64,000 bases of DNA from Escherichia phage vB_EcoM-P3322, in sequence record PV191315.1. One strand, 5' to 3'. Below the pieces are notes generated by a model that was given only the letters and a program-made list of their open reading frames with translations, made no database searches and was not told the origin of the DNA. This document shows positions 3,177 to 25,698 of this stretch, piece after piece. Each line of letters begins with the position of its first letter. The stretch's first letter is position 1. A program made the translations under genes and the position numbers.

Positions 3177-3449
3177 TCACCCCCAAGAAATATTTATATA
3201 TCTTACAATGTTTGCACTGTCTAAAGCCATGTTTGCACCACACCCACGCTCGCGCCAGTAACTAACAATACCTTCACAGATACTCTCTTGTATCTTCTTA
3301 TCACTTGGCATTTCTAGTATAAGACTTGGGTTGTGGATGTTTATGTTATAATATCCTTCCTCTGCGGCTTGAGCTACCAATTTACTTACTTTTTCAAAGT
3401 ACGGGGAATTAGTGGCATCTGCCATTGTTTTTAAGGTTTGTCTATCCAT
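3177..3449 (-). CDS. hypothetical protein
   Basis: 90-aa ORF in minus-strand array. Confidence 0.5.
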   Translation of the reverse strand: MDRQTLKTMADATNSPYFEKVSKLVAQAAEEGYYNINIHNPSLILEMPSDKKIQESICEGIVSYWRERGCGANMALDSANIVRYINISWG

Positions 3450-3814
3450 TATTCTGCCTCATCATAGAAGAAATCCAACTCTTGTTCCAGTTGTTTAACT
3501 CGATCCTTAACCCACTGTACACGTTTTTCATTAAACATGCAACGTTTTTCCTTACACTCTTGCTCAAAAGATTTTGCTGTGTTAAATGGGAAAGTTGTAT
3601 CTAAGCCAGCGTTTTCAAAACTGGCTAATTGCATACCATAAACAGAATATGCTAAAGAATGCTCGGCCCGAAATTCATCACTTATATACATACGTAGACC
3701 TCGGCATAAGCCAACATCAGCGTAACCACTTTCTCTTGGAAAGAGCCGGAGGTGTTCTAACCAATTATTATAGAAATCTAAAAGAATCCTCTTACACTTC
3801 AAATCGATTGTCAT
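3449..3814 (-). CDS. hypothetical protein, paralog family A
   Basis: Start at internal ATG (rc 3812-3814) with GAAGGAGA RBS; GLC / FPF / RVQWVKDR motifs. Confidence 0.55.
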   Translation of the reverse strand: MTIDLKCKRILLDFYNNWLEHLRLFPRESGYADVGLCRGLRMYISDEFRAEHSLAYSVYGMQLASFENAGLDTTFPFNTAKSFEQECKEKRCMFNEKRVQWVKDRVKQLEQELDFFYDEAE

Positions 3815-4214
3815 AAAAAGTTTCTCCTTCATCAAACAAGTTGGCAAGATTGTTCACGGCAATCTGGGTGGAAAGAAGACAACTGTTTGCAGACACATAA
3901 GCACGAGCTATTTTGTAAACATAGACTTTCGTATTACAATTATCTAGGATCGGAAGACTTTCGTCGATAGCATCTATAACACTAAACATCACATCTAAAA
4001 CTTTAATGGTGAGTGTTGTATTTGTATCTTCGTAACCTTTTTCAATCCGACCTGAATAGAAAGCATAGTCCTCAACAGTTCGTCGTTTAAACTGGCGCAT
4101 AAAATCGGAACCATCTGTAGCAGAATTGAACAAATTTTCAAAAAATACGTCCCATCCGGCAAAAAGGGCTGACAGCATGATTAAGTGATCTACAGATTCA
4201 TTTTCTTGTTTCAT
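3792..4214 (-). CDS. hypothetical protein
   Basis: 140-aa ORF in minus-strand array. Confidence 0.5.
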   Translation of the reverse strand: MKQENESVDHLIMLSALFAGWDVFFENLFNSATDGSDFMRQFKRRTVEDYAFYSGRIEKGYEDTNTTLTIKVLDVMFSVIDAIDESLPILDNCNTKVYVYKIARAYVSANSCLLSTQIAVNNLANLFDEGETFYDNRFEV

Positions 4215-4222: not shown

Positions 4223-4900
4223 CTATTTAATGTTCAGTCTGGCACACAAACGAGAAACAGTTTTAGCATCCCATTTACCACCACGTGCTGTTGCTATTTT
4301 CTTACTATTGAATTTTTCAGCAATAGTTTTGTAAGGGGTATTTAAATCTCTAAGGATCTCCAAGCGTTCACGGAATGTCTCTGCAAAAGCGTCTGCTTTA
4401 ACAGAATTGTATTCCATTTTTCCTTTTCTACGTGCAGCGGCAGTTTTAGGATTAGCACTGCCTAATAAAACACCTTTACTTTTTGCTACAGCAAGACCCT
4501 TTTTAATACGATCAGCAATACCTCTAACTTCTTGTTCAGCCAGAACAGACAGAAGCTGTATAACCATTTTATCTGCGTCTGGCATAATGGCTATCTTAAC
4601 ATCGATCATTTCTAGAAGAGTTGCTACGGAGGCGTTGTTACGACCCAAGCGGTCAACTTTAGCTACCAATAAAGTTGCTCCGGTAGCTTTACACATTTCA
4701 ACCGCTTTAACCAGTTCCTTACGTTGCTTCCAATCGCCCTTACCCGAATAGTATTCAGAAAATTGACCAATAACTTCCGCATCAGGCACAGAGTCTAAGA
4801 AGTAACGGATATCATTCTCTTGGCTCTCCATACCATATTGTGCCTCACCTTTTTTCTGTTTAGAAAGACGACTGTAAACAACAAACTTTTTCATAACCAC
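4223..4900 (-). CDS. small serine recombinase (resolvase/invertase family)
   Basis: N-terminal VYSRLSKQ catalytic-Ser region, LLVAKVDRLGRN signature, C-terminal basic HTH-like tail; own promoter. Confidence 0.8.
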   Translation of the reverse strand: MVMKKFVVYSRLSKQKKGEAQYGMESQENDIRYFLDSVPDAEVIGQFSEYYSGKGDWKQRKELVKAVEMCKATGATLLVAKVDRLGRNNASVATLLEMIDVKIAIMPDADKMVIQLLSVLAEQEVRGIADRIKKGLAVAKSKGVLLGSANPKTAAARRKGKMEYNSVKADAFAETFRERLEILRDLNTPYKTIAEKFNSKKIATARGGKWDAKTVSRLCARLNIK

Positions 4901-4923
4901 TCCTAAACTATTGCTGTATTCTC

Positions 4924-4952
4924 ACTTTACAAAACGAATAAACACTTGTCAA
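4924..4952 (-). promoter_or_regulatory. sigma70-like promoter of recombinase gene
   Basis: rc strand TTGACA (4947-4952), 17-nt spacer, TAAAGT (4924-4929); AGGAG RBS follows. Confidence 0.5.
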
Positions 4953-4964
4953 GGTATTTATTAT

Positions 4965-6332: not shown

Positions 6333-6659
6333 TCAACTATTTATTTCTTCTGCTACACGTTCTTTTACCCAGTTCACACGATCCACATTCAAATGACAAC
6401 GGCTTTTTTCCGCTTCTAAGGTGTACTTTCCAAAATTACTGTTGAAAGGCAACACCATAACCAAATCTTTGTGGTAGAACTGCTCATGCATTTCATCCAG
6501 TACGGGTTCGTATCGTTCGCTTTCACCCATATCGTAAAAATCATAGAGGTTCGAGCACAAACCTGTGCAACGGGTGAACGGTTCGCCTTCAGGAGCACCA
6601 GCTTCCAACCATGCCAAATACGTGCGGTAAAATGTTAATAGTTCTTCGCTCATTTCCAC
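6333..6659 (-). CDS. hypothetical protein, paralog family A
   Basis: FYxxYLAWLEAGAP...GLC...LPF...RVNWVKER; closest to 7092-7418. Confidence 0.55.
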   Translation of the reverse strand: MEMSEELLTFYRTYLAWLEAGAPEGEPFTRCTGLCSNLYDFYDMGESERYEPVLDEMHEQFYHKDLVMVLPFNSNFGKYTLEAEKSRCHLNVDRVNWVKERVAEEINS

Positions 6660-6868
6660 TCTCCTTCATGATAGTAAACCTCAAAAGAATAGTAAGTGAA
6701 CATGCTCATTGTAACACCTGCCATTTCTGGATCAACGGAAGTGTTGTTATACATGTCAACTACTGCCTGACCCGCTGCTTTGGCATGTGCTGCCGAATCA
6801 CAAGCACAAACATCTTTCTCCCACGGAAACTTGCCATCATACTTAAGACGCACAATCCACATGATCAT
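6650..6868 (-). CDS. hypothetical protein
   Basis: 72-aa ORF. Confidence 0.45.
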   Translation of the reverse strand: MIMWIVRLKYDGKFPWEKDVCACDSAAHAKAAGQAVVDMYNNTSVDPEMAGVTMSMFTYYSFEVYYHEGEWK

Positions 6869-7092
6869 TCTTCCATCTCAAACCATTCAGGGAACACTTT
6901 GCGGAAGACCCGCGTGTTTTCTAAGAGAAATTCCAACTCTTTTTCCAAATCTGCGTTCCAACCGTTTATTTTAACACGGATTGCCAATGCACTTGCACGG
7001 CGACTCAATTCTTGACAGATTGGATCACGCAGAACTATTGAGTCATAAAACTGACAAACAGCCTCAAGTTCATACCAGTTATAATCCGACAT
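6865..7092 (-). CDS. hypothetical protein
   Basis: 75-aa ORF. Confidence 0.45.
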   Translation of the reverse strand: MSDYNWYELEAVCQFYDSIVLRDPICQELSRRASALAIRVKINGWNADLEKELEFLLENTRVFRKVFPEWFEMEE

Positions 7093-7418
7093 TATTCATC
7101 CTCCTCTGCAATACGATCTCTTACCCAATTAATCCTGTCCACATTCAGGTGACATACCTCTGCATCTGATTCTAAGACATATGCATCGTAGTTCTCATTG
7201 AAGGGTAATTCTTGACTCAACCCTTTGTGGTAAAACTGTGCGTGCATTTCATCTGCCAAGGTTGTTATAAGGGGATTGTAGCCATCCGCGTGCACATAGT
7301 CGAATAAGTTGGCACACAAACCGCAATCCCGCCGAAAAGGTTTACCATCAGGAGCACCAACATCAATCCATGCTAGATAAATTTTATAAAACTCCATCAA
7401 CCTTGCGCTTGTTTTCAT
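7092..7418 (-). CDS. hypothetical protein, paralog family A
   Basis: FYKIYLAWIDVGAP...GLC...LPF...RINWVRDR. Confidence 0.55.
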   Translation of the reverse strand: MKTSARLMEFYKIYLAWIDVGAPDGKPFRRDCGLCANLFDYVHADGYNPLITTLADEMHAQFYHKGLSQELPFNENYDAYVLESDAEVCHLNVDRINWVRDRIAEEDE

Positions 7419-10129: not shown

Positions 10130-10330
10130 TTATTTATCTTGCTTGTATCTTACAAGGCGATCACACTCCAGGTCAAGAAATTTCTCCGCATTTCGTTCGT
10201 GTTTGAGCACAATACATTGTTCTTTCCAGTCTGTAGCTCTTTGCTGCGCTGCTCCTGGGTCAAAATCCCAAAGCCATGCCGCGAAAAGAACAACCATAAC
10301 AATTACTAAGAAACTAAACACTATTGGCAT
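10130..10330 (-). CDS. small membrane protein
   Basis: Start at internal ATG (rc 10328-10330) with AGGAGG RBS; TM helix IVFSFLVIVMVVLFAAWLW. Confidence 0.45.
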   Translation of the reverse strand: MPIVFSFLVIVMVVLFAAWLWDFDPGAAQQRATDWKEQCIVLKHERNAEKFLDLECDRLVRYKQDK

Positions 10331-10635
10331 TGCACATCCTCCTGTGTAGCATGGTCTTTTACCCATTTTATACGGGCAGCATTCAAATGCAATAGCCCGT
10401 TTCTTTGTGCAAAATCATATTTAAACCAGTCTCCGTCATCAAACGGGTATTCTTCAGACAATCCTGCCTCACGGAATTGCATTTGCATTTCATAATTTAG
10501 ATCATCATAACCTCCAGTCCAAAGGTAGAGGCAACTACATAATCCTTTATCATGCCAGAAAGGATTATTATCTGGAGCACCAGCTAATAGCCAATTATGA
10601 TATGCCTGATAAAATTCTTTAAGTTCCTCTGACAT
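10321..10635 (-). CDS. hypothetical protein, paralog family A
   Basis: FYQAYHNWLLAGAP...GLC...YPF...RIKWVKDH. Confidence 0.55.
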   Translation of the reverse strand: MSEELKEFYQAYHNWLLAGAPDNNPFWHDKGLCSCLYLWTGGYDDLNYEMQMQFREAGLSEEYPFDDGDWFKYDFAQRNGLLHLNAARIKWVKDHATQEDVQCQ

Positions 10636-14438: not shown

Positions 14439-14813
14439 TTATTCAAAGCAAACATTATTTGCATCTTCAATTCTGTCTTTCACCCATTGAAGACGTAACG
14501 TGTTGGTATGACACGCCAAGTTTATACACTCTGAAAGGTAATCCATGCAATCTGCATTGAACGGAAGATTGTAGTCCAGCCCTGCACATGTAAACTGTTT
14601 CCTCATTTCGTATTTCAAACTATCCAACAAACGATCACGCCATCTTTTATCTTCTTCTCTGGTTGTCTCACCAACAAAATCATCTACATAATCTACCAGA
14701 CAACCACATAAGCCACTCGTTGTGCGATTCATTGCAGGATAGTTGGCAATCCATGCTTTATAGAAGCGAAGCAATGTTGCACTACTCAACGGAATATTTT
14801 TACTCTCTTGCAT
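14439..14813 (-). CDS. hypothetical protein, paralog family A
   Basis: FYKAWIANYP...GLC...LPF...RLQWVKDR. Confidence 0.55.
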   Translation of the reverse strand: MQESKNIPLSSATLLRFYKAWIANYPAMNRTTSGLCGCLVDYVDDFVGETTREEDKRWRDRLLDSLKYEMRKQFTCAGLDYNLPFNADCMDYLSECINLACHTNTLRLQWVKDRIEDANNVCFE

Positions 14814-14819
14814 GACAAT

Positions 14820-16391
14820 CTCCTCTCATCGTTAGCCATCTTTCATGGCAATCATCAATCACCAACATCATACGATCAATCTCAGGGAATTACAATCGAA
14901 TTATCATAGGGGATTCCTATCAATTATCCCATATATACCGATTATTTTTGACACCCCACTCTTGTATAAAAAGTAACCCAAAATATCTACGGGGAGAGAT
15001 TATTTCGGGACACCCTGTTTCATGGCAATCATGGCAAGAATATCTAATAGAATCAATATCATATGGCAAAAATCATGACGCATACGTAAGAAGTGCTTAA
15101 CGCGAATTTTCGGGCCGTCAGGTCCACGCAGCGACAATTCCCAAATATCATGAGAATGAGAATAATTATCATTCGTATTCAATGACTTATGCAAGGCTCA
15201 TGCCAACATAGCGACAAGGTGGGCCACTTGATTATAAATCACACAAACACTTATTTATCAATAGGTTGGCAACTTCATCATATGACGGAACATTGTCAAC
15301 TGATCCCGCTCATGACAAGCAGACTATTATTTATATGAGAATGATTATTATTTAAACGTTTATTAACATAAAAATTAAAATAAATCAAGAATTTTCTGAT
15401 TTTATTTACGTTTAAGAGAAGATGCTCAACATCCTACCGGATCGCCGTTGGCAATCCTCGGATATTTACGCCCCCATGATTAAGGTTTATCTCTTTTCTT
15501 AGTGCTCAACATTCCCGCCCGTGGCGGTAACATTTCGCCCCCAAAATTATTGCTTTTTATTCTATTATGTGCATAGTGTGCAATGTATCGGAATGATGAT
15601 AATCATCCTCCCATTGCCCCCATAATTATTGCCATGCTAATGATTTCATCTTGTAATTACCACAATGATTATTGTTATTGCGCTAATGTTATGATCTTGG
15701 TAATTACATATAATGCTAATAATAAGCCAGCGCAATAAGTGTAAGCGTCATTACGCTTGCAATTATTGCAAGCTACGCAGTAACAAGAAATAACCATCAC
15801 CGATGGTTATGATTGTTGGGGTGTAGTTGGCTTATTATTAGCTCGCTATGTGTCCGGCATAGCGTGCTAATGATGATCCTGGGAATGATTCGTTTTGTAA
15901 TGATTTCATTCAGTCACTATTATGGCAATAGTTATTATTTTAATGGTTTCGTTTGTTATTGTTCGTTAGTTGGTTGTTTTGTCGTGTTATCGTTATCTTG
16001 CTTAGTATTCATCATGGTTTGATTGTTTGTCGTTATCAATCATCTTGCTATTATTCCTTTGATTATGATTAGTTTGCTTATTGTTTTAGGTTGTTGGTTA
16101 GTTAGTTGTTGCGAACTATTATCAACATTATAGTTATGCACTTATATTGCATAGATAAACATGGATAGATGATAATGGTTATCATTGAACTAGAAAAGAG
16201 GTAAAAGGGTGTTTTTGATGGTTTGTTGTTGGTTGTTGATCGATTTTAACCGCTATAAATGGCTCTCTAACAGCCTGTTACCCTGGGAGGTATGGTTATT
16301 CGTTTAATGGTTGATTAGCTCGATACCGCGATTTATTCAATTTTGTTCTGTGTCGGTTTTTCATAGGCGAAAGCTATCAACATTGTTCGGG
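14820..16391. other. 1.6-kb non-coding AT-rich region with GATAAT/ATCATT palindromes and short repeats
   Basis: No credible ORF; palindromes GATGATAATCATC (~15596) and TGATAATGGTTATCA (~16166), AAGCGTCATTACGCTT, GCAATTATTGC; recurring GCTAATGAT and GAGAATGA motifs. Confidence 0.5.
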
Positions 16392-16428
16392 CAAAAAGAA
16401 AGGGCGCTTGGTGCGCCCCTTGTTTTGT
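16392..16428 (-). terminator. bidirectional intrinsic terminator-like hairpin
   Basis: GGGCGCTTGGTGCGCCC stem-loop flanked by A-run and T-run; just downstream of 16435-16854. Confidence 0.55.
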
Positions 16429-16434
16429 TGTCGC

Positions 16435-16854
16435 TTATAACGCTTCATAGATTGAGTAGATCCGGTTTGCCAGATCATTACGAAAGCGGAATTTTTCATC
16501 ACGTTTGATCATCAGATCCTTAAAACCGCATTCTTTCAGTGCTTCATTAACTTTATGGCGGCAAACGTTCATATTATCCTGCGCGTCACCAATAAACTTA
16601 TTGCTGTGATGCATTGCTTTGATCTCTTCCTCTAATACCAGGGCAACTACACGGATCGGATCAAGCTGATATGCGGTAACATCCATGCGGCATTGTAGAC
16701 GGCTTTTAACATCGTTTACCGGATATACTGCAACCTCTTCCCCGTCAACGTTCACAATAACCAATTTACCATCGATTTCGAAGCCTTTGGCGGCGCTACC
16801 GTGACAAAAAGCGTTATCGAAGGAGTAAGCTGGATTATTTGATTTAATGTTCAT
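16435..16854 (-). CDS. hypothetical protein
   Basis: Start at internal ATG (rc 16852-16854, MNIKSNNPAY); flanked by terminator hairpins. Confidence 0.5.
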   Translation of the reverse strand: MNIKSNNPAYSFDNAFCHGSAAKGFEIDGKLVIVNVDGEEVAVYPVNDVKSRLQCRMDVTAYQLDPIRVVALVLEEEIKAMHHSNKFIGDAQDNMNVCRHKVNEALKECGFKDLMIKRDEKFRFRNDLANRIYSIYEAL

Positions 16855-17687: not shown

Positions 17688-17746
17688 GGCGGGAAACATT
17701 CCCGCCCTACGTGATAAATGATAATGTAAGCGTGATCCGGTGTCAA
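17688..17746 (-). promoter_or_regulatory. promoter + 5' GC-hairpin module
   Basis: rc: TTGACA (17741-17746), ~17-nt spacer, -10, then CACGTAGGGCGGGAATGTTTCCCGCC hairpin. Confidence 0.55.
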
Positions 17747-17880
17747 TAGGTAGGATTGTAAAGATTTGATAGTTTATCTCTTTGATGTTTTGTTGTTTGA
17801 TAGATGTTAGCTATCAATATATAGCGGGGTCGTCCGGTGATTATCTTCCCCTGCTCCCAGGTGCCGCCCGTTCAATAAGT

Positions 17881-17913
17881 ATAACAAAAAACAGGACAAA
17901 AACAAGCCCTGTT
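17881..17913 (-). terminator. terminator-like hairpin
   Basis: AACAGG...CCTGTT stem followed on minus strand by TTTTTGTTAT. Confidence 0.4.
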
Positions 17914-17921
17914 TATTTATC

Positions 17922-18056
17922 TTAAAACCAGTTGCCAACCGTTTCCAATAGGTCACTGACTACCAGGACAACATTAATCAGCACATATTCAACCAGGAAG
18001 GGAATAAGCGCCAGCGTTGCTACTACGATCCCCATTGTGATGATTACCTTTCTCAT
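17922..18056 (-). CDS. small hydrophobic peptide
   Basis: 44-aa ORF (MRKVIITMGIVVATLALIPFL...), single TM segment. Confidence 0.35.
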   Translation of the reverse strand: MRKVIITMGIVVATLALIPFLVEYVLINVVLVVSDLLETVGNWF

Positions 18057-18058
18057 GG

Positions 18059-18343
18059 TTAGCGGCTTACGTAAGCTTTACCGTTTACGGTCATCGGTAT
18101 GGCCTCAAGGTCTGGATCTTCCTTAAGGTCGCGTGCAAGCTCACCGCAGCGGATACCCTCGAATCCGTGGTATTCTGTCGCGCCGTCCTGGAAAGTTTTA
18201 GCGGCAAGGCATAGGCGATAATTAACACCGATCCGGTTTACCGCGTTGATATCGGTTAACGTGATGGATTCAGGCAAATCATTAGCCATTACAGGCGCGT
18301 TAATACCAACAACCAGGGCAACTACTGCGATCATCTTTTTCAT
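18059..18343 (-). CDS. secreted small protein
   Basis: Signal peptide MKKMIAVVALVVGINAPVMA. Confidence 0.55.
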   Translation of the reverse strand: MKKMIAVVALVVGINAPVMANDLPESITLTDINAVNRIGVNYRLCLAAKTFQDGATEYHGFEGIRCGELARDLKEDPDLEAIPMTVNGKAYVSR

Positions 18344-18398
18344 GTGTCTATCCTCTTCCTATTGCGTTTAATGGGGGCGTTACCGCCCTGCTTATGGT

Positions 18399-18635
18399 TT
18401 ATTGATTGATGTTATAATGAAAATTATTTTCTTCAATAGCTTTTAAAATAAAAGCCGTGATCGCTTTCGTGTCTACTTGTTCGAACGTATCAGAATAGCA
18501 CCAATAATAATCATCCCCTACTTTCGGCGGGTAAACCTGGACAAGGAGATCGCCACCTGGTTGATCTATAAGCTCAACATGCAAGCCGGATGATTCAGCG
18601 GTTTTAACGGCGGTTAATACTGTTGCAATACTCAT
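18399..18635 (-). CDS. hypothetical protein
   Basis: 78-aa ORF; GC hairpin 18651-18666 in 5' leader. Confidence 0.5.
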   Translation of the reverse strand: MSIATVLTAVKTAESSGLHVELIDQPGGDLLVQVYPPKVGDDYYWCYSDTFEQVDTKAITAFILKAIEENNFHYNINQ

Positions 18636-18679
18636 AATCTTTTCCTTTCTGATGTGGGGCGTTGCCGCCCCTTTGTTGA

Positions 18680-18979
18680 TTAGATCGCTGTTTCCAGTAG
18701 TTCGGCTAACGTCTTACCGCCTGATAGTTGGTCTAACGTTTGCTCTTCTGGCAAGAAATTAGCTGATATTAATCCGACTTGATTTCCTTTGTGCCAATTA
18801 GCTTGACGGATGATTCCATCCTTTAAAGATTTTACCGCCATTGTGCAACCGTCGCCAAATGATTCATTTTTATGATCCATCACTTCATAAGCGCCCAGCT
18901 TGCTACTGTTAGGCACCATTAACGCGAATACATCACCAACAACCAGTTTTTCTACGGTAATAATAGCGATAGTTTCCAT
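18680..18979 (-). CDS. hypothetical protein
   Basis: 99-aa ORF, GAGGA RBS, module upstream. Confidence 0.5.
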   Translation of the reverse strand: METIAIITVEKLVVGDVFALMVPNSSKLGAYEVMDHKNESFGDGCTMAVKSLKDGIIRQANWHKGNQVGLISANFLPEEQTLDQLSGGKTLAELLETAI

Positions 18980-19007
18980 TTTACTTTCCTCATTATCGGC
19001 GGCACCA

Positions 19008-19064
19008 TTGCCGCCCTACGTGGTAAATATTAGCACACTGGCGATCTGTGTCAATACTTTTTAT
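19008..19064 (-). promoter_or_regulatory. promoter + 5' GC-hairpin module
   Basis: rc: TTGACA, 17-nt spacer, TAATAT, CACGTAGGGCGGCAATGGTGCCGCC. Confidence 0.55.
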
Positions 19065-19447
19065 TCAATATAAATCAAATTATCTTCACCAATGTAAGCC
19101 GACACGTTCGGCATAAACTTAGCTGCATTGGTTAGGCGGTTGGCTGTGTTAGTGGTGTATATTTCAGGGCGATCCCAAAAGCCTACGCCGTGACCGTTAC
19201 GGGTAAAATGTAAATCATTCCCGATCTGGTTGGCTGTTGCGCCGTCGCTCATTGCCTCAGAGATAGCGGCAAGATTAGCATTAATAAAGGCTGTTACATC
19301 CTGGGCGATCCGTTGATCTGCGCTAGGAGAAAAATCATAATCGTCTAAGTTATCAATAAAATTACCTTCATGATCCCTTGCTGATTCAGCAAAAATAAAG
19401 GCTTCTTTATAGCCGTTGATGATTTCAATAATGATTTCTGTTTTCAT
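19061..19447 (-). CDS. hypothetical protein
   Basis: 128-aa ORF. Confidence 0.55.
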   Translation of the reverse strand: MKTEIIIEIINGYKEAFIFAESARDHEGNFIDNLDDYDFSPSADQRIAQDVTAFINANLAAISEAMSDGATANQIGNDLHFTRNGHGVGFWDRPEIYTTNTANRLTNAAKFMPNVSAYIGEDNLIYIE

Positions 19448-19668
19448 GCTGTACGCTCGACAATAATAATAGTTTGCGGGATCTCGTTTTCTACTACTAA
19501 CAAGGCTTTTTTCTGTGTGATAGATATTTTAACACGTTGTAAAGTAGCGGTAAAATCTTTCATTTCATTATGCGCGGATTTAGTACAATGCCAGATCTCA
19601 GGCTTACCAACTTGTAAGCCGCGTAAAAATTCCGTTTTGCCTGTTTTGTTCGTGATCATTTGTTTCAC
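19444..19668 (-). CDS. hypothetical protein
   Basis: 74-aa ORF. Confidence 0.5.
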   Translation of the reverse strand: MKQMITNKTGKTEFLRGLQVGKPEIWHCTKSAHNEMKDFTATLQRVKISITQKKALLVVENEIPQTIIIVERTA

Positions 19669-19669
19669 C

Positions 19670-19774
19670 TTAACCGATACCGTGGGAAGATAGGATCATA
19701 TTAGCCATAGTTGCAACTACTCCAACCGATAACGCCAGGCCAACCACTGCAACCGTGAAAATTTTCTCTAACAT
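19670..19774 (-). CDS. small hydrophobic peptide
   Basis: 34-aa ORF (MLEKIFTVAVVGLALSVGVV...) directly downstream of a module; track ORF extended through the promoter. Confidence 0.3.
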   Translation of the reverse strand: MLEKIFTVAVVGLALSVGVVATMANMILSSHGIG

Positions 19775-19793
19775 GATTCTACCCTCATTAATG

Positions 19794-19854
19794 GGCGTTG
19801 CACCATTGCCCCGCCCTACGTAATACACTTTACTAGATAACAAATTATTGTCAA
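19794..19854 (-). promoter_or_regulatory. promoter + 5' GC-hairpin module
   Basis: rc: TTGACA (19849-19854), -10, TACGTAGGGCGGGGCAATGGTGCAACGCCC. Confidence 0.5.
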
Positions 19855-19995
19855 GCTTTATTTTACTTCCCAAACGGAAAATTCGCTGCCTGTTGGGATC
19901 ATTTTTTTAATCTTGTTTGCTGCCGCTACCAGGTCAACGGCTTGTACTGTAATAATATAACCAATTGTCGAGGCTGTTGCGTTGAAAGTTTTCAT
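19816..19995 (-). CDS. hypothetical small protein
   Basis: 59-aa ORF (MKTFNATASTIGY...), AAGGG RBS; 3' end overlaps downstream module. Confidence 0.35.
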
Positions 19996-20014
19996 TATAT
20001 TGCCCTTTAATACA

Positions 20015-20037
20015 GGCGGGATTAATCCCGCCTTTTT
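20015..20037 (+). terminator. terminator-like hairpin (plus-strand orientation)
   Basis: GGCGGGATTAATCCCGCC followed by TTTTTG on plus strand, inside minus-strand block. Confidence 0.4.
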
Positions 20038-20039
20038 GA

Positions 20040-20210
20040 TTACTCTTCATTATCGCCGTTATAGTATTCAATGCCGTTTTCATCGGTTACGGTGATGTTA
20101 ACGCCACCGATAGCAACACGATCACGGGCAAACGTCATAGCTTCATTTAAATCTTCAGACCAAAAAATATTGTGACCTTTGCGCGATACATAAAACATAG
20201 TCGGGATCAT
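20040..20210 (-). CDS. hypothetical small protein
   Basis: Start at internal ATG (rc 20208-20210, MIPTMFYVSRKG); longer track ORF would run through the upstream module. Confidence 0.45.
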   Translation of the reverse strand: MIPTMFYVSRKGHNIFWSEDLNEAMTFARDRVAIGGVNITVTDENGIEYYNGDNEE

Positions 20211-20232
20211 GATTTGTTTCTCTTCTGTTATG

Positions 20233-20293
20233 AGCGGTGGACCATTCCGCCGCCCTATGTGGTAAACTTTACTACGTTGTTTGCCTGCTGTCA
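20233..20293 (-). promoter_or_regulatory. promoter + 5' GC-hairpin module
   Basis: rc: TTGACA (20288-20293), -10, CACATAGGGCGGCGGAATGGTCCACCGC. Confidence 0.5.
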
Positions 20294-20295
20294 AA

Positions 20296-20580
20296 CTATT
20301 TTTTAATGTTTTGCCCTACAAAATCGATCACTTCCTTAAGCTGTCTCTCTGTCATGATCGTACCTGGTAACTCTTCTTTAATTTCTTCCGGTAAATAGAT
20401 ATTACCGCGCCAGGTTAACAAACAACCGTTTTGATCTTCGCAGATAGAATAAGAAAACATCCACTCGCAATCATTTTCAAGCTCCCAAAAACACAAAAAG
20501 TCTTCTTTCCCTAAGTTTTCAACGGTTAAACATAATCCGCGACGTGCTGCATAATTAGTTAGGCTTTTTGTGATTTTCAT
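20296..20580 (-). CDS. hypothetical protein
   Basis: Start at internal ATG (rc 20578-20580, MKITKSLTNY). Confidence 0.5.
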   Translation of the reverse strand: MKITKSLTNYAARRGLCLTVENLGKEDFLCFWELENDCEWMFSYSICEDQNGCLLTWRGNIYLPEEIKEELPGTIMTERQLKEVIDFVGQNIKK

Positions 20581-20599
20581 GATTTTTCTCTCTTCTTGT

Positions 20600-20657
20600 G
20601 AGCGGCACCATTGCCGCCCTACAAGATACATATTACCAGATTAAGCGGACTTGTCAA
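20600..20657 (-). promoter_or_regulatory. promoter + 5' GC-hairpin module
   Basis: rc: TTGACA (20652-20657), TAATAT, TTGTAGGGCGGCAATGGTGCCGCTC. Confidence 0.55.
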
Positions 20658-20658
20658 A

Positions 20659-20769
20659 CTATTTTTTCTTTTTCTTTGCTTTCAATCGTCTAAGGTTACG
20701 GCTGGACTTATTGCGCAAGGCGCTTAGATCGTCGTACCCTTTCCATGCTTGCATATCTTTCGGATTCAT
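20659..20769 (-). CDS. small basic protein
   Basis: 36-aa ORF (MNPKDMQAWKGY...KAKKKKK) with AAGGGGA RBS. Confidence 0.35.
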   Translation of the reverse strand: MNPKDMQAWKGYDDLSALRNKSSRNLRRLKAKKKKK

Positions 20770-20778
20770 GTTATCCCC

Positions 20779-20940
20779 TTACTTGTTAGCCGGATCATAT
20801 ACCAGGACCGCGCCGCTTGCTTTCACGCTTTCCGCTTCATAGTTGCGCAGATCGTTTTCTGTAAGATTGAGCGCGATCACTTCCTCGATCTCAACGCCAG
20901 CGGCAAGGGCGATCTCTTTGATAATATCTGTTGTTTTCAT
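20779..20940 (-). CDS. hypothetical small protein
   Basis: Start at internal ATG (rc 20938-20940, MKTTDIIKEI). Confidence 0.4.
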   Translation of the reverse strand: MKTTDIIKEIALAAGVEIEEVIALNLTENDLRNYEAESVKASGAVLVYDPANK

Positions 20941-20950
20941 GGTGTGCACC

Positions 20951-21070
20951 TTATAAGATGATTGATAAGATAGTGACAACGAAAGCGATTATACTGATGG
21001 CAAATGTCATCTTTTTACCTTCGGATACTGCCGGATTTTCTACCGTGTATTCTACTGTGTACTTGCTCAT
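20951..21070 (-). CDS. small membrane peptide
   Basis: 39-aa ORF with C-terminal TM segment FAISIIAFVVTILSIIL. Confidence 0.35.
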   Translation of the reverse strand: MSKYTVEYTVENPAVSEGKKMTFAISIIAFVVTILSIIL

Positions 21071-21093
21071 CGTGTAATCCTCTCGTTTGCTTT

Positions 21094-21150
21094 GGGAACT
21101 ATTCCCGCCGCCCTATGAATTAAATATACACTATCTCAAAATGATTGCAA
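21094..21150 (-). promoter_or_regulatory. promoter + 5' GC-hairpin module (TTGCAA -35 variant)
   Basis: rc: TTGCAA, -10, TTCATAGGGCGGCGGGAATAGTTCCC. Confidence 0.5.
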
Positions 21151-21168
21151 GCCTTTTTCTAAATTATT

Positions 21169-21453
21169 TTATTCAGTAAACAAACCATCATTTACAACGG
21201 CGGCGATGATCTCCCGTGCCATTGATTCAGGGAAAGGGGCGCTATAGTCCTGGCTTGTCTCATCGGTATCGGTGATCCAATGATAAGCTAACGAGTAAAA
21301 GCCTTTACTAACTGTTTTCAGTGAGATGATGATCACTCGGTCAAGCTTATTGGTGAATGTTGCCGTTAATGTGTTACCCTCCTGCGTCATGTTGGACAAG
21401 TAAGCGAGATCATTAATCAGGGAAAACATTAGCACGGTGTTAGCTTTACTCAT
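21169..21453 (-). CDS. hypothetical protein
   Basis: Start at internal ATG (rc 21451-21453, MSKANTVLMF) with GAGGA RBS. Confidence 0.5.
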   Translation of the reverse strand: MSKANTVLMFSLINDLAYLSNMTQEGNTLTATFTNKLDRVIIISLKTVSKGFYSLAYHWITDTDETSQDYSAPFPESMAREIIAAVVNDGLFTE

Positions 21454-21471
21454 GATTGCATCCTCAAAGGG

Positions 21472-21530
21472 GCGCGGCACCATTGCCGCCCTACACGATA
21501 ACTATAACACAATGTAAAACAGGGTCAACC
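21472..21530 (-). promoter_or_regulatory. promoter + 5' GC-hairpin module
   Basis: rc: TTGACC, TATAGT, TATCGTGTAGGGCGGCAATGGTGCCGCGCC. Confidence 0.5.
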
Positions 21531-21731
21531 TTTATTTTTCCACGGTGTCAGCTTGTTAATCATTGGTGATAAATAGCGTTTACCAACGTAAAACAGTACG
21601 CCAACTGATGCAACGGCGGCGACCTCATGCATAGCCGACGGGAAACGGGTATCATAATAAGATCCAATAATAGCAATAGCGGCAACGGCTGCAACGTCGA
21701 TAATGATTTTCTCTTGTTTTGCGGTGATCAT
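21525..21731 (-). CDS. small membrane protein
   Basis: 68 aa with two hydrophobic segments. Confidence 0.5.
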   Translation of the reverse strand: MITAKQEKIIIDVAAVAAIAIIGSYYDTRFPSAMHEVAAVASVGVLFYVGKRYLSPMINKLTPWKNKG

Positions 21732-21752
21732 AGTATTTACCTTTTTGTATGG

Positions 21753-21810
21753 TGGGGAACTATTCCCCGCCTGATGTAATACAGTTTAACAGGTCCGGTT
21801 ATGGTGTCAA
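21753..21810 (-). promoter_or_regulatory. promoter + 5' GC-hairpin module
   Basis: rc: TTGACA (21805-21810), -10, ACATCAGGCGGGGAATAGTTCCCCACC. Confidence 0.5.
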
Positions 21811-21816
21811 CCACTT

Positions 21817-22002
21817 TTAAAGATATTTTATGCTAATGACGTTTTCAGGTTTTACCTTGTTATAATGTGCATCAACATAGATCAAACCATCGTCAGAAAA
21901 GCCCAGGATCACGCCCTGCGCGATAAAACCGTACTCGTCACGGTAACGCACGGCTATTTTTAATGTTGCGTTGTAGGCTGTTTTAAGCTCGTTTAAAGTC
22001 AT
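21817..22002 (-). CDS. hypothetical protein
   Basis: 61-aa ORF. Confidence 0.45.
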   Translation of the reverse strand: MTLNELKTAYNATLKIAVRYRDEYGFIAQGVILGFSDDGLIYVDAHYNKVKPENVISIKYL

Positions 22003-22021
22003 TTTTGTTTATCCTCTACAT

Positions 22022-22051
22022 GTAAAAAGAAAGGGCGCTTGATGCGCCCTT
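22022..22051 (-). terminator. intrinsic terminator
   Basis: AAGGGCGCATCAAGCGCCCTT hairpin followed on minus strand by TTCTTTTTAC. Confidence 0.6.
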
Positions 22052-22057
22052 GTTATG

Positions 22058-22204
22058 TTAATCCTCTAAATCCATCCAATTATATTTGTCACTCTTCCCG
22101 CGCTTTGTTTTATTACGCTTGTCACCTTTGCGGATCACTTCCTCGTTCCAGGCCTTGCGGATCTTGGAAGATTGAATTTTTTCTGCGCGATTAGATGTAT
22201 TCAT
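22058..22204 (-). CDS. small basic protein
   Basis: 48-aa ORF (MNTSNRAEKIQSSKIRK...) between module and terminator. Confidence 0.4.
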   Translation of the reverse strand: MNTSNRAEKIQSSKIRKAWNEEVIRKGDKRNKTKRGKSDKYNWMDLED

Positions 22205-22221
22205 TTTGTTTCCTCTTTATA

Positions 22222-22277
22222 TGAGCGGCACCATTGCCGCTATATTGTTAATTTAAACTGTTTTGTAAAATTGTCAA
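22222..22277 (-). promoter_or_regulatory. promoter + 5' GC-hairpin module
   Basis: rc: TTGACA (22272-22277), spacer, -10, TAGCGGCAATGGTGCCGCTC. Confidence 0.5.
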
Positions 22278-22283
22278 GGTTTA

Positions 22284-22637
22284 TCATTCATAAGAGCAAG
22301 CAAGGATCACGCCTGCAATATAAAGCCAATAATTTTCCCTTTCTCGTTGGATTTTATCATCGCTGCTATTCTCTTTAATGTATCCCCAGGATGTTAACAA
22401 GCGATCAATTTCCCAATATTCGAAAGCTATATTAATATCTGATGGCAAACCTTGTAACCATGATGCAAGTGCTTTAACAATACTATAATTAAAACGTGAT
22501 TGATTATCAGGGTACCAGTACTCGGAATTAAAACGGCGCATCAATTCCGCGATCTTCTCTTTTTCGGTTGTAATACCGTAATCATTAAAATCGATAGCGG
22601 CAAGGATGTACTCTTTAATTGCATTTTGTGCTTTCAT
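22284..22637 (-). CDS. hypothetical protein
   Basis: 117-aa ORF. Confidence 0.5.
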   Translation of the reverse strand: MKAQNAIKEYILAAIDFNDYGITTEKEKIAELMRRFNSEYWYPDNQSRFNYSIVKALASWLQGLPSDINIAFEYWEIDRLLTSWGYIKENSSDDKIQRERENYWLYIAGVILACSYE

Positions 22638-22654
22638 GGTCTTTCTCTCTTTTT

Positions 22655-22712
22655 AGCGGGAACTATTCCCGCCCTACGTGTAACAGTTTACTGAAAATTA
22701 AATCCGTGTCAA
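22655..22712 (-). promoter_or_regulatory. promoter + 5' GC-hairpin module
   Basis: rc: TTGACA (22707-22712), -10, CACGTAGGGCGGGAATAGTTCCCGCT. Confidence 0.55.
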
Positions 22713-22715
22713 GCT

Positions 22716-22937
22716 TTATTTTGTTACTACCATTTGGTACCCTGTTTCAATGTTAGTAAATACTGTTATCCCGTCCTGGCGTTCACTCATTAGCATACAA
22801 GGCGCTAACATCCTTTCTACTGCCTTGCACTCATTGTAAACGGCGGTTATGTCTCCTGCGGCCTTGTCTTCTGTGGTGAATGTATCGTTTATGTAAACTT
22901 GACTAGCGACAACGGCGACAATAGCGAAAGTGATCAT
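22716..22937 (-). CDS. hypothetical protein with hydrophobic N-terminus
   Basis: 73 aa; MITFAIVAVVASQVY signal/anchor-like start. Confidence 0.5.
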   Translation of the reverse strand: MITFAIVAVVASQVYINDTFTTEDKAAGDITAVYNECKAVERMLAPCMLMSERQDGITVFTNIETGYQMVVTK

Positions 22938-23010
22938 GATATTTTTCTCTTTATGTGTTTCTATTAGTTGATATTACAGCAATTCGCAGATTATTTTTTA
23001 GCAATTCGTG

Positions 23011-23229
23011 CTATTTACTCATAACAGTATCGAAAACAAATTTTTCTTTGTTGTCAAAGCTCACGTATCCGATTCTACCACGCAAGCCGCAAGTAGTGCC
23101 GTATTCGTAACCGTCAAGACCTTTAACCTTCCAATCCACGCCCATTAAAACCGCATTATATTTCTGACCAACTACAAACGCGCCACCAGTTGATTCAATG
23201 CAAACAACTTTAATTTTACGGATTGCCAT
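23011..23229 (-). CDS. hypothetical protein
   Basis: 72-aa ORF. Confidence 0.5.
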   Translation of the reverse strand: MAIRKIKVVCIESTGGAFVVGQKYNAVLMGVDWKVKGLDGYEYGTTCGLRGRIGYVSFDNKEKFVFDTVMSK

Positions 23230-23265
23230 TTTCTTTCTCTCTTTCTGGTGATTGGTTTCTCTTCT

Positions 23266-23305
23266 CTATAGCGCCCATTGTAAGGCGCTATAACGAAAAG
23301 TCAAC
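23266..23305 (-). promoter_or_regulatory. promoter with palindrome spanning the -10
   Basis: rc: GTTGAC -35, 16-nt spacer, TACAAT; 9-bp arms TATAGCGCC...GGCGCTATA (23266-23291) flank the -10. Confidence 0.45.
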
Positions 23306-23307
23306 GA

Positions 23308-23475
23308 TTATTTTTTAAGGCTTAAAGTACCTAACTTGTCAGCATGACGCAGACCAGGGAATATCCATTTGCCTGACTCATCTTTCACCGGGGCTTTAAG
23401 CGTAGCGCCCAGGTTGGCGGCGTTAACTTTACGTGCAACGTTGCGAGCGGCTTCACGGGTAGCGAAAGTGATCAT
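23308..23475 (-). CDS. hypothetical small protein
   Basis: 55-aa ORF (MITFATREAARNVARKV...). Confidence 0.4.
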   Translation of the reverse strand: MITFATREAARNVARKVNAANLGATLKAPVKDESGKWIFPGLRHADKLGTLSLKK

Positions 23476-23499
23476 GGTGTTTTCCTCTTCTCTTTGTTA

Positions 23500-23561
23500 G
23501 GCGGTGGACCATTCCGCCGCCTTGATGTAATACAGTTTACTTTATTTTATTAAGATTGCAA
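23500..23561 (-). promoter_or_regulatory. promoter + 5' GC-hairpin module (TTGCAA variant)
   Basis: rc: TTGCAA, -10, CATCAAGGCGGCGGAATGGTCCACCGCC. Confidence 0.5.
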
Positions 23562-23567
23562 GCGGTT

Positions 23568-23783
23568 TTATGAAATAATTGTCAAAGTAAAATCATAAGA
23601 CTGATTTAATTTATATTGTACTTTATTGCCGTAGTAGTCACCTTTACGTAAAGATCCGCGAATACCTATCACATCCTTTACATCTTTAAGATTTTTTACG
23701 CCTGTAATGTCTTTATTGAAATACTCGTCATCTGAAAATAAAACTTGACTTGCATTTTTTAACAGTGTACGGATATTAGCCAT
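23568..23783 (-). CDS. hypothetical protein
   Basis: 71-aa ORF. Confidence 0.45.
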   Translation of the reverse strand: MANIRTLLKNASQVLFSDDEYFNKDITGVKNLKDVKDVIGIRGSLRKGDYYGNKVQYKLNQSYDFTLTIIS

Positions 23784-23806
23784 CGTGATAATCTCTCTTC
23801 TGTTGT

Positions 23807-23864
23807 GAGCGGCACTATTGCCGCCCTACGTAATACAGTTTACTCTTTTTCTTTCCGGTGTCAA
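23807..23864 (-). promoter_or_regulatory. promoter + 5' GC-hairpin module
   Basis: rc: TTGACA (23859-23864), -10, TACGTAGGGCGGCAATAGTGCCGCTC. Confidence 0.55.
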
Positions 23865-23873
23865 CAATCTTTT

Positions 23874-24101
23874 TCAGATTAATTCATCCAGGCATAACAG
23901 GCGATCAACGTTGAGATCGGTTAGGCTGATGGTTGGCACCTGGTAGGATTCGATGTACTCGACGCTTGCATATTCCCCAAAATTAGCAACAGCCCACTTA
24001 TTCAAGATCTCACATACATCATTAATCTTTTTGTTTGTTACAACTGCAATGACCTGGGAAGTGCCAACGGTGCCGGATACGCGAACAATATTGATAGCCA
24101 T
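23874..24101 (-). CDS. hypothetical protein
   Basis: 75-aa ORF. Confidence 0.45.
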   Translation of the reverse strand: MAINIVRVSGTVGTSQVIAVVTNKKINDVCEILNKWAVANFGEYASVEYIESYQVPTISLTDLNVDRLLCLDELI

Positions 24102-24122
24102 AATCTTTAATCTCTCTGTTTT

Positions 24123-24182
24123 GGCGGGAAACCACTTCCCGCCCTATGTGATACATCTTACACTAATTTTAAACGTTGTCAA
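24123..24182 (-). promoter_or_regulatory. promoter + 5' GC-hairpin module
   Basis: rc: TTGACA (24177-24182), TAAGAT-type -10, CACATAGGGCGGGAAGTGGTTTCCCGCC. Confidence 0.55.
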
Positions 24183-24191
24183 CTGTTTTTA

Positions 24192-24431
24192 TTACATTCC
24201 AACCATCGCGGCACGGATCGCAGTAGTGCTATATTTGAAACCGTCTGGCGTTTTATCTTGTCCAGTTTGTTCCAGAAAAAGCATCATATCCCGCGCCGCA
24301 TCATTACGATTAGCATTAGCGTTAATAAAATCTTGGGCCAACCGGTATAACGATTCATCGTTATTAATCCAAAGGCTTACATTCCAATGAGTTTTGTTTT
24401 TGTGACCGTTGTACATTTTAGATTTAGCCAT
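24192..24431 (-). CDS. hypothetical protein
   Basis: 79-aa ORF. Confidence 0.45.
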   Translation of the reverse strand: MAKSKMYNGHKNKTHWNVSLWINNDESLYRLAQDFINANANRNDAARDMMLFLEQTGQDKTPDGFKYSTTAIRAAMVGM

Positions 24432-24465
24432 GATTTTTCTCTCTTTTTCAGTGAGGCGGGAAGTG

Positions 24466-24514
24466 TTCCCGCTCTCTATGTAATACAGTTTACTCTTTTT
24501 ATTCGTGCTGTCAA
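24466..24514 (-). promoter_or_regulatory. promoter + 5' GC-hairpin module
   Basis: rc: TTGACA (24509-24514), -10, CATAGAGAGCGGGAACACTTCCCGCC. Confidence 0.5.
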
Positions 24515-24520
24515 TGCTTT

Positions 24521-24886
24521 TTATAAATCTTTTTTACGTTTTACATCGCTCGCATGACTGTATACAGTGATCCCATTGTCACGGCAAAAACGGGAAAGAT
24601 ACGCGCCGCGTGAAAACTCTTTACCTTCCATATTAATAACCTTGCTAAATTCTTCTAGGGCAACGGTATCAAAATGATCCCCATAGCCATATTGAAACGG
24701 AACGTTAACTACTTCGATCAGTTTACCGCCGATCTCAACATCAACCATCAAAGAGAAATAAGTATTACCATAAGACTTTTGAAACCAGCGACGGGCGCTA
24801 ATATGTACCGCTTCAATGCTGGATAGTTCAATTTTAGCAGTGTTAGCCAGGGTAGCATAAGCAGAAACATTGATATTTTTAGCCAT
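24521..24886 (-). CDS. hypothetical protein
   Basis: 121-aa ORF; degenerate module upstream (24890-24975). Confidence 0.5.
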   Translation of the reverse strand: MAKNINVSAYATLANTAKIELSSIEAVHISARRWFQKSYGNTYFSLMVDVEIGGKLIEVVNVPFQYGYGDHFDTVALEEFSKVINMEGKEFSRGAYLSRFCRDNGITVYSHASDVKRKKDL

Positions 24887-24981
24887 AGTCTTTAATCTCT
24901 TTTGATTAGTTAGGAGTATTCCCGATAAAAGTTATTATGCTTATACTATCACTCATTGTCAATAGTATAAGACTAAAACTT

Positions 24982-25161
24982 TTAACGATAATCGTTATAG
25001 GCTTTATTGACCTGGCGAATGTAACATTCGAAAGCAAGATCAATGTATTCGTATTCACGCACATAATCACCATAGGTCACTACATACATTTTTAAAGTTT
25101 CCTCATAAGCCAGGAGGATCGAATCTAAACCTATAATCTCAGTTTTTGCAATGATAGCCAT
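24982..25161 (-). CDS. hypothetical small protein
   Basis: 59-aa ORF (MAIIAKTEIIGLD...). Confidence 0.4.
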   Translation of the reverse strand: MAIIAKTEIIGLDSILLAYEETLKMYVVTYGDYVREYEYIDLAFECYIRQVNKAYNDYR

Positions 25162-25181
25162 GATGTTAACCTTTTATTGTT

Positions 25182-25238
25182 GGCGGCACCATTGCCGCCC
25201 TACGTGATAAACTATACCAGAATTTTAAACAGTGTCAA
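25182..25238 (-). promoter_or_regulatory. promoter + 5' GC-hairpin module
   Basis: rc: TTGACA (25233-25238), 16-nt spacer, TATAGT, CACGTAGGGCGGCAATGGTGCCGCC. Confidence 0.6.
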
Positions 25239-25244
25239 CCGTTT

Positions 25245-25607
25245 TTATTCGTAAATTTTACCGCTTTCGGCCCATACCATAACGCGGCGCATACTATCCC
25301 AAGTGTTTTGATCCAAGTTTAAGCCGTGCAACTCTTCGGTACTTCCCAGACCAGGTACCGCTTTGTTGTAAGTTGCATATAAGCGCCCTTGATACTCATA
25401 CGCCAGAGTAAGATCCGTTTGAATCATCTTTTTAAGCATAGCATTAAGCATCATATTAGCGGCATGTTGATCACGTTTTAGCGGTAACATATCAATAAGG
25501 GCGCGATAAGCTGAAACATGAATATCAACCGTTTCACGTGGTAAATTTTTCATATCATCACGGAAAGATACCAGATTAAACATGATAGTATTGATTTGCT
25601 TGCTCAT
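25245..25607 (-). CDS. hypothetical protein
   Basis: 120-aa ORF. Confidence 0.5.
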   Translation of the reverse strand: MSKQINTIMFNLVSFRDDMKNLPRETVDIHVSAYRALIDMLPLKRDQHAANMMLNAMLKKMIQTDLTLAYEYQGRLYATYNKAVPGLGSTEELHGLNLDQNTWDSMRRVMVWAESGKIYE

Positions 25608-25689: not shown

Positions 25690-25698
25690 GAATATTTT

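Follow-up and report, generated by a model that had tools for sequence, protein, structure and literature searches.

A 64,000-nt stretch of the genome of Escherichia phage vB_EcoM-P3322 (PV191315.1; hereafter the window) carries a gene for a 223-aa serine recombinase with an intact active site and very probably an early promoter of its own. The gene is conserved and under purifying selection in a subfamily of lytic phages, and we observed neither inversion of a phage segment nor integration into a host genome. We tentatively propose that it codes for an early-expressed resolvase-type enzyme acting on a putative single site per genome copy, a reading which we consider plausible rather than probable.

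The phage and previous annotation of the gene

Sequence comparison identifies the window as part of a lytic, phAPEC8-like Phapecoctavirus of ~150 kb. The region is 97–99.7% identical to ~60 Phapecoctavirus genomes, including phAPEC8, ESCO5, ESCO13, ZCKP1 and tuntematon, and the small same-strand genes around the recombinase gene, described in an earlier note on this DNA as a lytic-type array, belong to this lytic group. Phage Schickermooser has a 329-bp direct terminal repeat (PMC6563267). Since this repeat maps to window positions 15098–15426, and several independent records start or stop exactly at 15426, the physical left end of the genome is placed inside the window by these alignments. 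The recombinase gene is located ~10.5 kb from this end and is transcribed away from it. No informative Pfam domains were found in its neighbours, and PADLOC gave no match that would link it to defence or anti-defence.

The gene is already known from public annotation. It is the orthologue of phAPEC8_0049 and Phi92_gp052, which are the same gene with nothing different: the protein read from the ATG is 100% identical in 62 phage records. In GenBank, phAPEC8_0049 has been annotated since 2012 as ‘putative site-specific recombinase’, and the names DNA invertase, resolvase and serine recombinase are used elsewhere. Several records (OR062524.1, OR062529.1, NC_052662.1 and others) misannotate it as ‘methionine ABC transporter ATP-binding protein’, which hides it from recombinase or lysogeny screens. 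One study missed the gene entirely (PMC10269720) and another guesses that it keeps ‘concatemers as single genome’ (PMC10282059).

A small serine recombinase with a complete set of catalytic residues

The open reading frame covers 4223–4900 on the minus strand (ORF list) and opens with a GTG at 4900, two codons upstream of an ATG at 4894. The length of 225 aa given by the earlier note corresponds to an existing reading frame, but is obtained only from this GTG. The GenBank records place the start of the orthologous gene at the ATG, and the ATG at 4894 is the likely start codon, giving 223 aa (Table 1).

The protein matched PF00239 (Resolvase) over residues 7–144 (E = 5e-18; 65.9 bits vs a cutoff of 23.3) and PHROG 125 ‘DNA invertase’ (E = 1e-32). 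Residues Y7, R9, S11, Q25, R58, D81, R82 and R85 are invariant in an alignment of ~20 family members with gamma-delta resolvase and Hin. The same was observed in an alignment of 51 sequences, and in both alignments the catalytic residues are kept without change down to 30% identity. This is the full active-site set, matching R8, S10, R45, D67, R68 and R71 of gamma-delta. With all catalytic residues present and a PF00239 score well above cutoff, the earlier description of a serine recombinase with the catalytic-serine region and a DRLGRN signature holds. From the alignments and the structural model described below, we infer that the enzyme is catalytically competent.

Table 1. Features of the recombinase gene in the window and dyads found upstream of related genes
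Feature	Position	Strand	Sequence or residues	Basis and remarks
Serine recombinase CDS	4223..4894 (stop codon included)	-	223 aa	ORF list, PF00239, PHROG 125
Catalytic core	4637..4864	-	S11 nucleophile (codon 4864-4862), R58, D81-R82-L-G-R85-N (residues 81-86, 4654-4637)	Read from the sequence; R9 (4870-4868) just beyond the span
C-terminal helical DNA-binding region (predicted)	4226..4447	-	Residues ~150-223, motif IAxxxNxxxIxTxRGGKW	
Shine-Dalgarno	4900..4904	-	AGGAG	Sequence; 5 nt before ATG
Sigma70-type early promoter (very probable)	4924..4952	-	TTGACA (4952-4947), 17-nt spacer, TAAAGT (4929-4924)	Promoter scan
Upstream dyad, Shewanella phages			AAACCCAGTGACTTAA-TA-TAAGGTTACTGGGTTT	
Upstream dyad, Klebsiella plasmids			TATCATTTGTTTGCCG-AA-CGGCAAATTTATGATA	
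Upstream dyad, one subgroup			ACAAA-N6-TAACG-NN-CGTTA-N6-TTTGT	Bipartite half-site ACAAA-N6-TAACG

An AlphaFold model built on the 51-sequence alignment (pLDDT 89.7) predicts the serine-recombinase catalytic fold followed by a long E helix (residues 109–139) and, in the C-terminal ~75 residues, four short helices (149–172, 175–183, 188–197 and 210–219). The best Foldseek matches were the catalytic domains of Sin, gamma-delta, TP901-1 and Bxb1 (the first three at E ~1e-6), and the full-length model was aligned to Bxb1 and other large integrases. HTH_7 (PF02796) gave no Pfam match in the C-terminus, and PF07508 matched the tail weakly (E = 0.003, residues 189–218). As judged by sequence and model, the C-terminal region is similar to the opening part of the ‘recombinase domain’ in large serine recombinases and unlike the HTH_7 of Tn3 or Hin.

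Two other layouts do not describe the protein. Its catalytic domain begins at residue 2, so that there is no N-terminal MerR-like HTH as in IS607-type enzymes, and flanking repeats are absent. Large serine recombinases exceed 400 aa and contain a zinc ribbon and a coiled coil beside a complete recombinase domain, whereas here 223 aa end in four short helices after the E helix.

The phage enzyme shares with the Tn3 and gamma-delta resolvases and with Sin its small size, the catalytic fold and the residues Y6, R8, S10, R45, D67, R68 and R71, and the reaction that we propose would be of the same type. It differs from them by an identity of only ~24%, by the absence of HTH_7 and of a three-subsite res (the intergenic space is 70 bp), and by its presence in a lytic phage instead of a transposon or plasmid. 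The invertases Hin, Gin, Cin and Pin are likewise small serine recombinases found in phages with the same active site. In contrast to these systems, we found no inverted crossover sites and no inversion polymorphism (three 25-kb stretches, ~60 genomes), and the DNA-binding domain is different. As in the integrases of Bxb1, phiC31, TP901-1 and A118, additional residues (SKQKKGEAQYGMESQ) separate the nucleophile of the enzyme from the conserved Gln, and its C-terminal motif is similar to the helices that open the recombinase domain in these large enzymes. However, they measure 450–600 aa against 223 aa; the phage enzyme has no zinc ribbon or coiled coil and is without the greater part of their recombinase domain, and no integration was seen.

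An early promoter upstream of the recombinase gene

The promoter TTGACA-N17-TAAAGT reported in the earlier note was recovered by our scan (Table 1). Counts of generic promoter-like sequences in the region were near chance (40 found vs 30.8 expected). For the strict pattern TTGACA-N16-18-[TC]AnnnT, by contrast, window 1–39000 has 25 matches on the coding strand vs 4 on the opposite one, and shuffles have 1.6 ± 1.2. A TTGAC-type promoter with ~17-nt spacing lies at the same place in five orthologues (phiWec181, Tr1, alia, phi1_175008 and FBKp34). Because the strict pattern is strand-biased and enriched over shuffles, and because these orthologues have equivalents, the promoter is very probably real. 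It is one among ~25 early promoters and no peculiarity of the recombinase gene.

In Klebsiella phage phi1_175008 (locus L006, 3955–3985), the recombinase promoter has its spacer and −10 inside a perfect 25-bp palindrome, ATGAAGAGTA-GTGCA-TACTCTTCAT. This palindrome is missing from the alia promoter, though the recombinase orthologue is 78% identical.

An old gene that has changed place once

The recombinase gene is found in ~135 records, about as many as the terminase of the subfamily, and by this count it is present in essentially every member of the Stephanstirmvirinae. The protein is 50–75% identical in sister genera and 57% identical between genera, within the 40–85% of neighbouring orthologues, and the gene does not differ in GC content from the genome around it. 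Compared with two other Phapecoctavirus genomes, it has 10 nucleotide differences, every one synonymous, while the neighbouring genes have amino-acid changes. As judged by these sequence comparisons, the gene is old, vertically inherited, strongly conserved and under purifying selection; it belongs to the Stephanstirmvirinae and to related myoviruses of 130–150 kb, and is no recent insertion.

Its position nevertheless differs between lineages. In Justusliebigvirus (alia), Klebsiella phages phi1_175008 and FBKp34, Shewanella phage 1/40 and two metagenomic relatives, it lies in a lysozyme-PhoH-HslV ... DprA/ligase block. The two small genes that border it there adjoin each other in Phapecoctavirus, with a terminator alone between them, and the recombinase gene is ~16 kb from this ‘empty’ site, in the left-end early cluster. 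From these positions, the promoter-plus-gene unit changed place a single time, in an ancestor shared by Phapecoctavirus, phiWec181 and Tr1. We found neither flanking repeats nor a target duplication to mark this move. The suggestion of the earlier note that the gene marks a mobile insertion is thus weakly sustained as regards the different placement of the unit in Phapecoctavirus and its sister genera, but not otherwise, given the lack of flanking repeats, the genome-like GC content, the near-universal presence and a divergence like that of the neighbours.

The Schickermooser copy (MK373788.1; L008, 11280–11955) has seven small deletions, 19 nt in total and all in the first 270 nt, and is annotated as a 128-aa fragment. 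We rejected this copy as a sign of dispensability: the adjacent genes in the same record also carry indels, of 3–4 nt, so that the breakage is probably a sequence error.

No invertible segment and no integrated state

The earlier note had raised the possibility of an invertible segment near the gene, with paired crossover-type repeats. Our repeat searches took in the 64-kb window and the other 100 kb of the genome (Schickermooser 14–114 kb), ~164 kb in total, and together with the dyad searches gave no inverted-repeat pair above chance level and terminator hairpins. The sole inverted pair touching the gene (4318–4346 / 4888–4916), which spans most of it, was rejected as a chance match: the pairing is not conserved in orthologues and shuffled queries did equally well. 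The promoter region had no partner anywhere in the window. In genome-wide scans, palindromes and dyads with 12-nt arms were within or near the shuffle range (47 observed vs 25–44 and 13 observed vs 2–14). Those with 14- and 16-nt arms were about twice as frequent as in shuffles (20 and 22 observed vs 6–14), and the top matches listed were mostly terminators, AT-rich tracts and terminal hairpins.

Comparison between genomes points the same way. The tail-fibre genes are all in the same orientation. Colinearity was compared over three 25-kb stretches, the repeat scans alone covering Schickermooser 16–76 kb and window 50–64 kb. Window 25001–50000 and the 25-kb baseplate/tail-fibre region each form a single colinear block in 56–67 genomes; for window 1–25000, the listed, best-covered genomes each give one colinear match, apart from those truncated where a record ends. 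No segment was seen in both orientations among the isolates (~60 genomes, three 25-kb stretches), and flanking inverted repeats were absent at 80 related loci from viral metagenomes. The invertible segment is therefore not supported by any of these comparisons.

The recombinase locus had no match among 5,426 complete E. coli genomes, plasmids included, and we consequently rejected integration or a plasmid state. This bears on the use of these phages. Members of the Phapecoctavirus group have been put forward for therapeutic use, for which a recombinase gene is routinely seen as a safety problem. Because the locus is absent from these 5,426 genomes and ~60 phage genomes are without inversion in the compared regions, our data argue that the gene is no sign of lysogeny or of host-range switching by inversion.

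Relatives on small plasmids and upstream dyads

The same full-length two-part architecture, at 35–40% identity, is found in ‘recombinase family proteins’ of 5–7 kb cryptic plasmids (Klebsiella, Synechococcus, Marinovum and Paracoccus) and in Shewanella phages 1/4 and 1/40, a Shewanella phage also sharing the PhoH-HslV...DprA neighbourhood of the gene. Such full-length relatives are carried by many small plasmids, mostly typed as non-mobilizable, and on the two Klebsiella plasmids inspected (5.8 and 6.5 kb) the relative is the sole annotated recombinase. More than 500 relatives are on viral contigs, mostly of 5–50 kb.

We searched the 200 nt before the start codon for dyads with 16-nt arms around a 2-nt centre and a match of 12/16 positions or better. 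Such 34-bp 16-2-16 dyads were present at 28% of 78 related loci vs 2% of control windows. They are clear in the Klebsiella plasmids and Shewanella phages, 20–70 nt before the start codon, whereas the coliphage orthologues are without them: in the Stephanstirmvirinae the best promoter-proximal dyads reach 8–12/16 and are not conserved. Nor was a res site with crossover and accessory subsites found beside the gene in the window, where the best dyad within the 70 bp of intergenic space at 4895–4964 is 11/16 and is unconserved in orthologues.

The relatives' dyads (Table 1) are laid out like crossover sites of serine recombinases and overlie the promoter of the enzyme's gene, which would make a ‘one gene, one site’ module by analogy with resolution systems. 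The half-site of one subgroup lacks self-complementarity in its middle, and this speaks for a site bound by protein and against an RNA hairpin. The dyad of two closer relatives, however, takes in the ribosome-binding site and may form a hairpin in the RNA. Direct repeats near the genes of other relatives (L028, L062, L066, L076, L091 and L096) were examined as sites and rejected, being terminators and promoters.

Three of the related loci showed further features. A 9.6-kb IMG/VR contig (L027) with a 44%-identical relative has a ~400-bp end repeat (545–931 vs 6755–7167, 6.2 kb apart); the contig probably represents a small circle whose assembly ran past one full turn, which agrees with the relatives on small plasmids. 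In Vibrio phages 277E43-1 (L017, 7470–8573) and VnaP (L018, 6740–7843), a 1104-nt gene, annotated as a histidine kinase-like ATPase in one of the two records, lies right after the recombinase gene or two genes on. It may be a partner gene of the recombinase, and is absent from the coliphages. ICP1 isolate 2017_DRC_48 (L014, 2751–6863) has a homologue of ~30% identity in a block without legacy GP numbers between GP41 and GP30, which seems to be a variable region present in some ICP1 isolates only.

Possible role of the recombinase

In the resolvase-type reading that we tentatively favour, host RNA polymerase would transcribe the gene from its sigma70 promoter early after injection. A dimer of the recombinase would then bind a single dyad-symmetric site, one per genome copy, and two such sites in direct repeat, on multimers arising by replication or recombination or on circularised intermediates, would be recombined. 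The chemistry would be the usual serine mechanism, with a 2-bp staggered double-strand cut, a covalent 5′-phosphoserine at S11 and subunit rotation. On small plasmids, enzymes of this kind usually serve to resolve multimers. Here, we infer the enzymatic activity, phage DNA as the substrate and resolution as the reaction. This reading fits the intact active site, the purifying selection, the presence of the gene in about as many records as the terminase, the plasmid relatives, the upstream dyads of relatives and the DNA-metabolism neighbours, since the lysozyme-PhoH-HslV...DprA/ligase block hosts the gene in five other lineages. It also fits the absence of paired sites, because a single-site system would need none; as one site per genome copy suffices and leaves no repeat in an assembly, repeat searches are blind to the substrate of a resolvase. 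Cre/loxP of phage P1 offers a functional analogy only, that of a phage recombinase with one site per genome that cyclises or monomerises DNA. Cre, however, is a tyrosine recombinase and P1 is temperate, and the site considered here is putative.

Several observations weigh against the resolvase-type reading. Our dyad searches provided no candidate site in this phage, and the upstream dyads of some relatives, which include the ribosome-binding site, may be RNA hairpins. Terminal-repeat phages package from concatemers, and resolving these would be without obvious benefit. Supercoiling of the DNA and accessory sites are both required by the classical small resolvases, and neither is evident here. 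The literature searched gave annotation-level remarks only and no experiment on any member of the family. More generally, and with somewhat less assurance than for the resolvase-type enzyme itself, we envisage a recombination step of the lytic cycle in terminal-repeat myoviruses (Stephanstirmvirinae, Shewanella 1/4-like phages and some vibriophages), which would monomerise or cyclise genomes at a putative single site or rearrange host or competitor DNA, and would serve neither inversion nor lysogeny.

Alternative roles were weighed against the same data. Action on DNA other than that of the phage (host chromosome, resident prophage, satellite or plasmid), in early takeover or in competition between elements, could account for early expression from a host-type promoter among small takeover-type genes, for our failure to find a site on the phage genome and for homologues restricted to a variable region of some ICP1 isolates. 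We consider it unlikely: the gene is conserved across phages of Escherichia, Klebsiella, Citrobacter, Shewanella and Vibrio, hosts without a common chromosomal target, most lineages place it among DNA-metabolism and not takeover genes, PADLOC gives no match, and the literature searched holds no precedent. A recombinase turned into a DNA-binding regulator of its own or other early promoters, and no longer recombining, would explain why the dyads of relatives overlap the promoter region, and repression of their own promoter is common among resolvases such as those of Tn3 and gamma-delta. The nucleophile and every active-site arginine are, however, invariant throughout a deep family; this argues for selection on catalysis and makes the regulator improbable. 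We judge just as improbable a selfish cassette of promoter and gene that moves within phage genomes and is of no use to the phage. The unit is indeed a self-contained transcription unit, bounded by a terminator in some relatives, and its position differs between Phapecoctavirus and the sister genera, with a terminator alone at the ‘empty’ site; but it moved only once across a deep phylogeny and left no flanking repeats or target duplication, its GC content is that of the genome, its 57% identity between genera falls inside the 40–85% of its neighbours, and essentially all members keep it under purifying selection.

The two readings suggested by the name of the gene or by the habits of its family fare worse. 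A DNA invertase of the Gin/Cin/Hin type, flipping a phage segment such as the tail-fibre genes or a promoter, would agree with the name ‘DNA invertase’ in many GenBank records and with bacterial relatives P0089 and P0071, which adjoin tail/baseplate genes in prophages. This rival is already largely refuted by the repeat searches over the window and the other 100 kb, the chance-level pair at the gene, the single direction of the tail-fibre genes, the colinear genomes and the 80 loci without flanking inverted repeats; the identity to Hin is just 25% and the C-terminal domain is different, and we regard it as very improbable. An integrase or plasmid-maintenance resolvase serving a hidden temperate or carrier state is hardly credible. 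Relatives do occur near the ends of ~30–40 kb viral contigs and on plasmids, but the locus is unmatched in the 5,426 complete E. coli genomes, the zinc-ribbon and coiled-coil domains of serine integrases are lacking, and the phage group is described as lytic and without prophage matches (PMC10282059).

The remaining interest is why purifying selection maintains a site-specific recombinase, catalytically intact as predicted, in all members of a lytic subfamily. If the resolvase-type enzyme acts in the lytic cycle, it would add a step to DNA handling by large terminal-repeat phages. A compact 223-aa recombinase with a new target site is a possible yield.

Other features of the window

A non-coding region (14815–16435) surrounds the terminal repeat, and the boundaries of the repeat are both at GTTRAGCA (GTTG/AGCA at 15426 and GTTA/AGCA at 15098). 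The boundary at 15098 is invariant in phiWec181 and alia, and these boundaries may be terminase cutting sites. In the 329-bp terminal repeat, we found nothing dyad-symmetric with an even centre that could be a Cre-like cyclisation site.

Three palindromes ~55 bp apart are located in 15640–15900, 270–450 bp outside the terminal repeat. They are kept across genera with compensatory changes in both arms: CGCTATG...CATAGCG of the window is replaced by GCCTATG...CATAGGC in alia, and ATAACCATC...GATGGTTAT by ATAACTATC...GATAGTTAT in phiWec181. Their centres are odd or variable in length, with iteron-like ATCATTAGCA repeats nearby, and their sequence suggests hairpins that belong to an origin or a packaging signal. 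The best dyad of the genome (15734–15767; 16-2-16, 13/16) was considered as a crossover site and rejected. It is a terminal non-coding hairpin whose centre shrinks to 1 nt in phiWec181, with a compensatory arm change, and alia has a different palindrome.

Paralogous early proteins of ~105–130 aa are encoded at 2171–2557, 3449–3847, 6333–6659, 7092–7418, 10321–10635 and probably 14439–14813 (repeat family D8). The two members tested had no Pfam match, and the paralogues share N-terminal FYxxYLxWLxxGAP...GLC and C-terminal RVxWVKERV motifs. At least 10 copies of a 56–75-nt cassette are present at 17690–27138, and at 49350–49426 on the other strand (repeat families D1–D7 and I1–I5). On the transcribed strand, the cassette consists of a TTGACA promoter, a conserved box CACGTAGGGCGG and a short GC stem-loop with compensatory stem changes, an arrangement which we take to resemble the promoter-stem-loop cassettes of T4-type phages.
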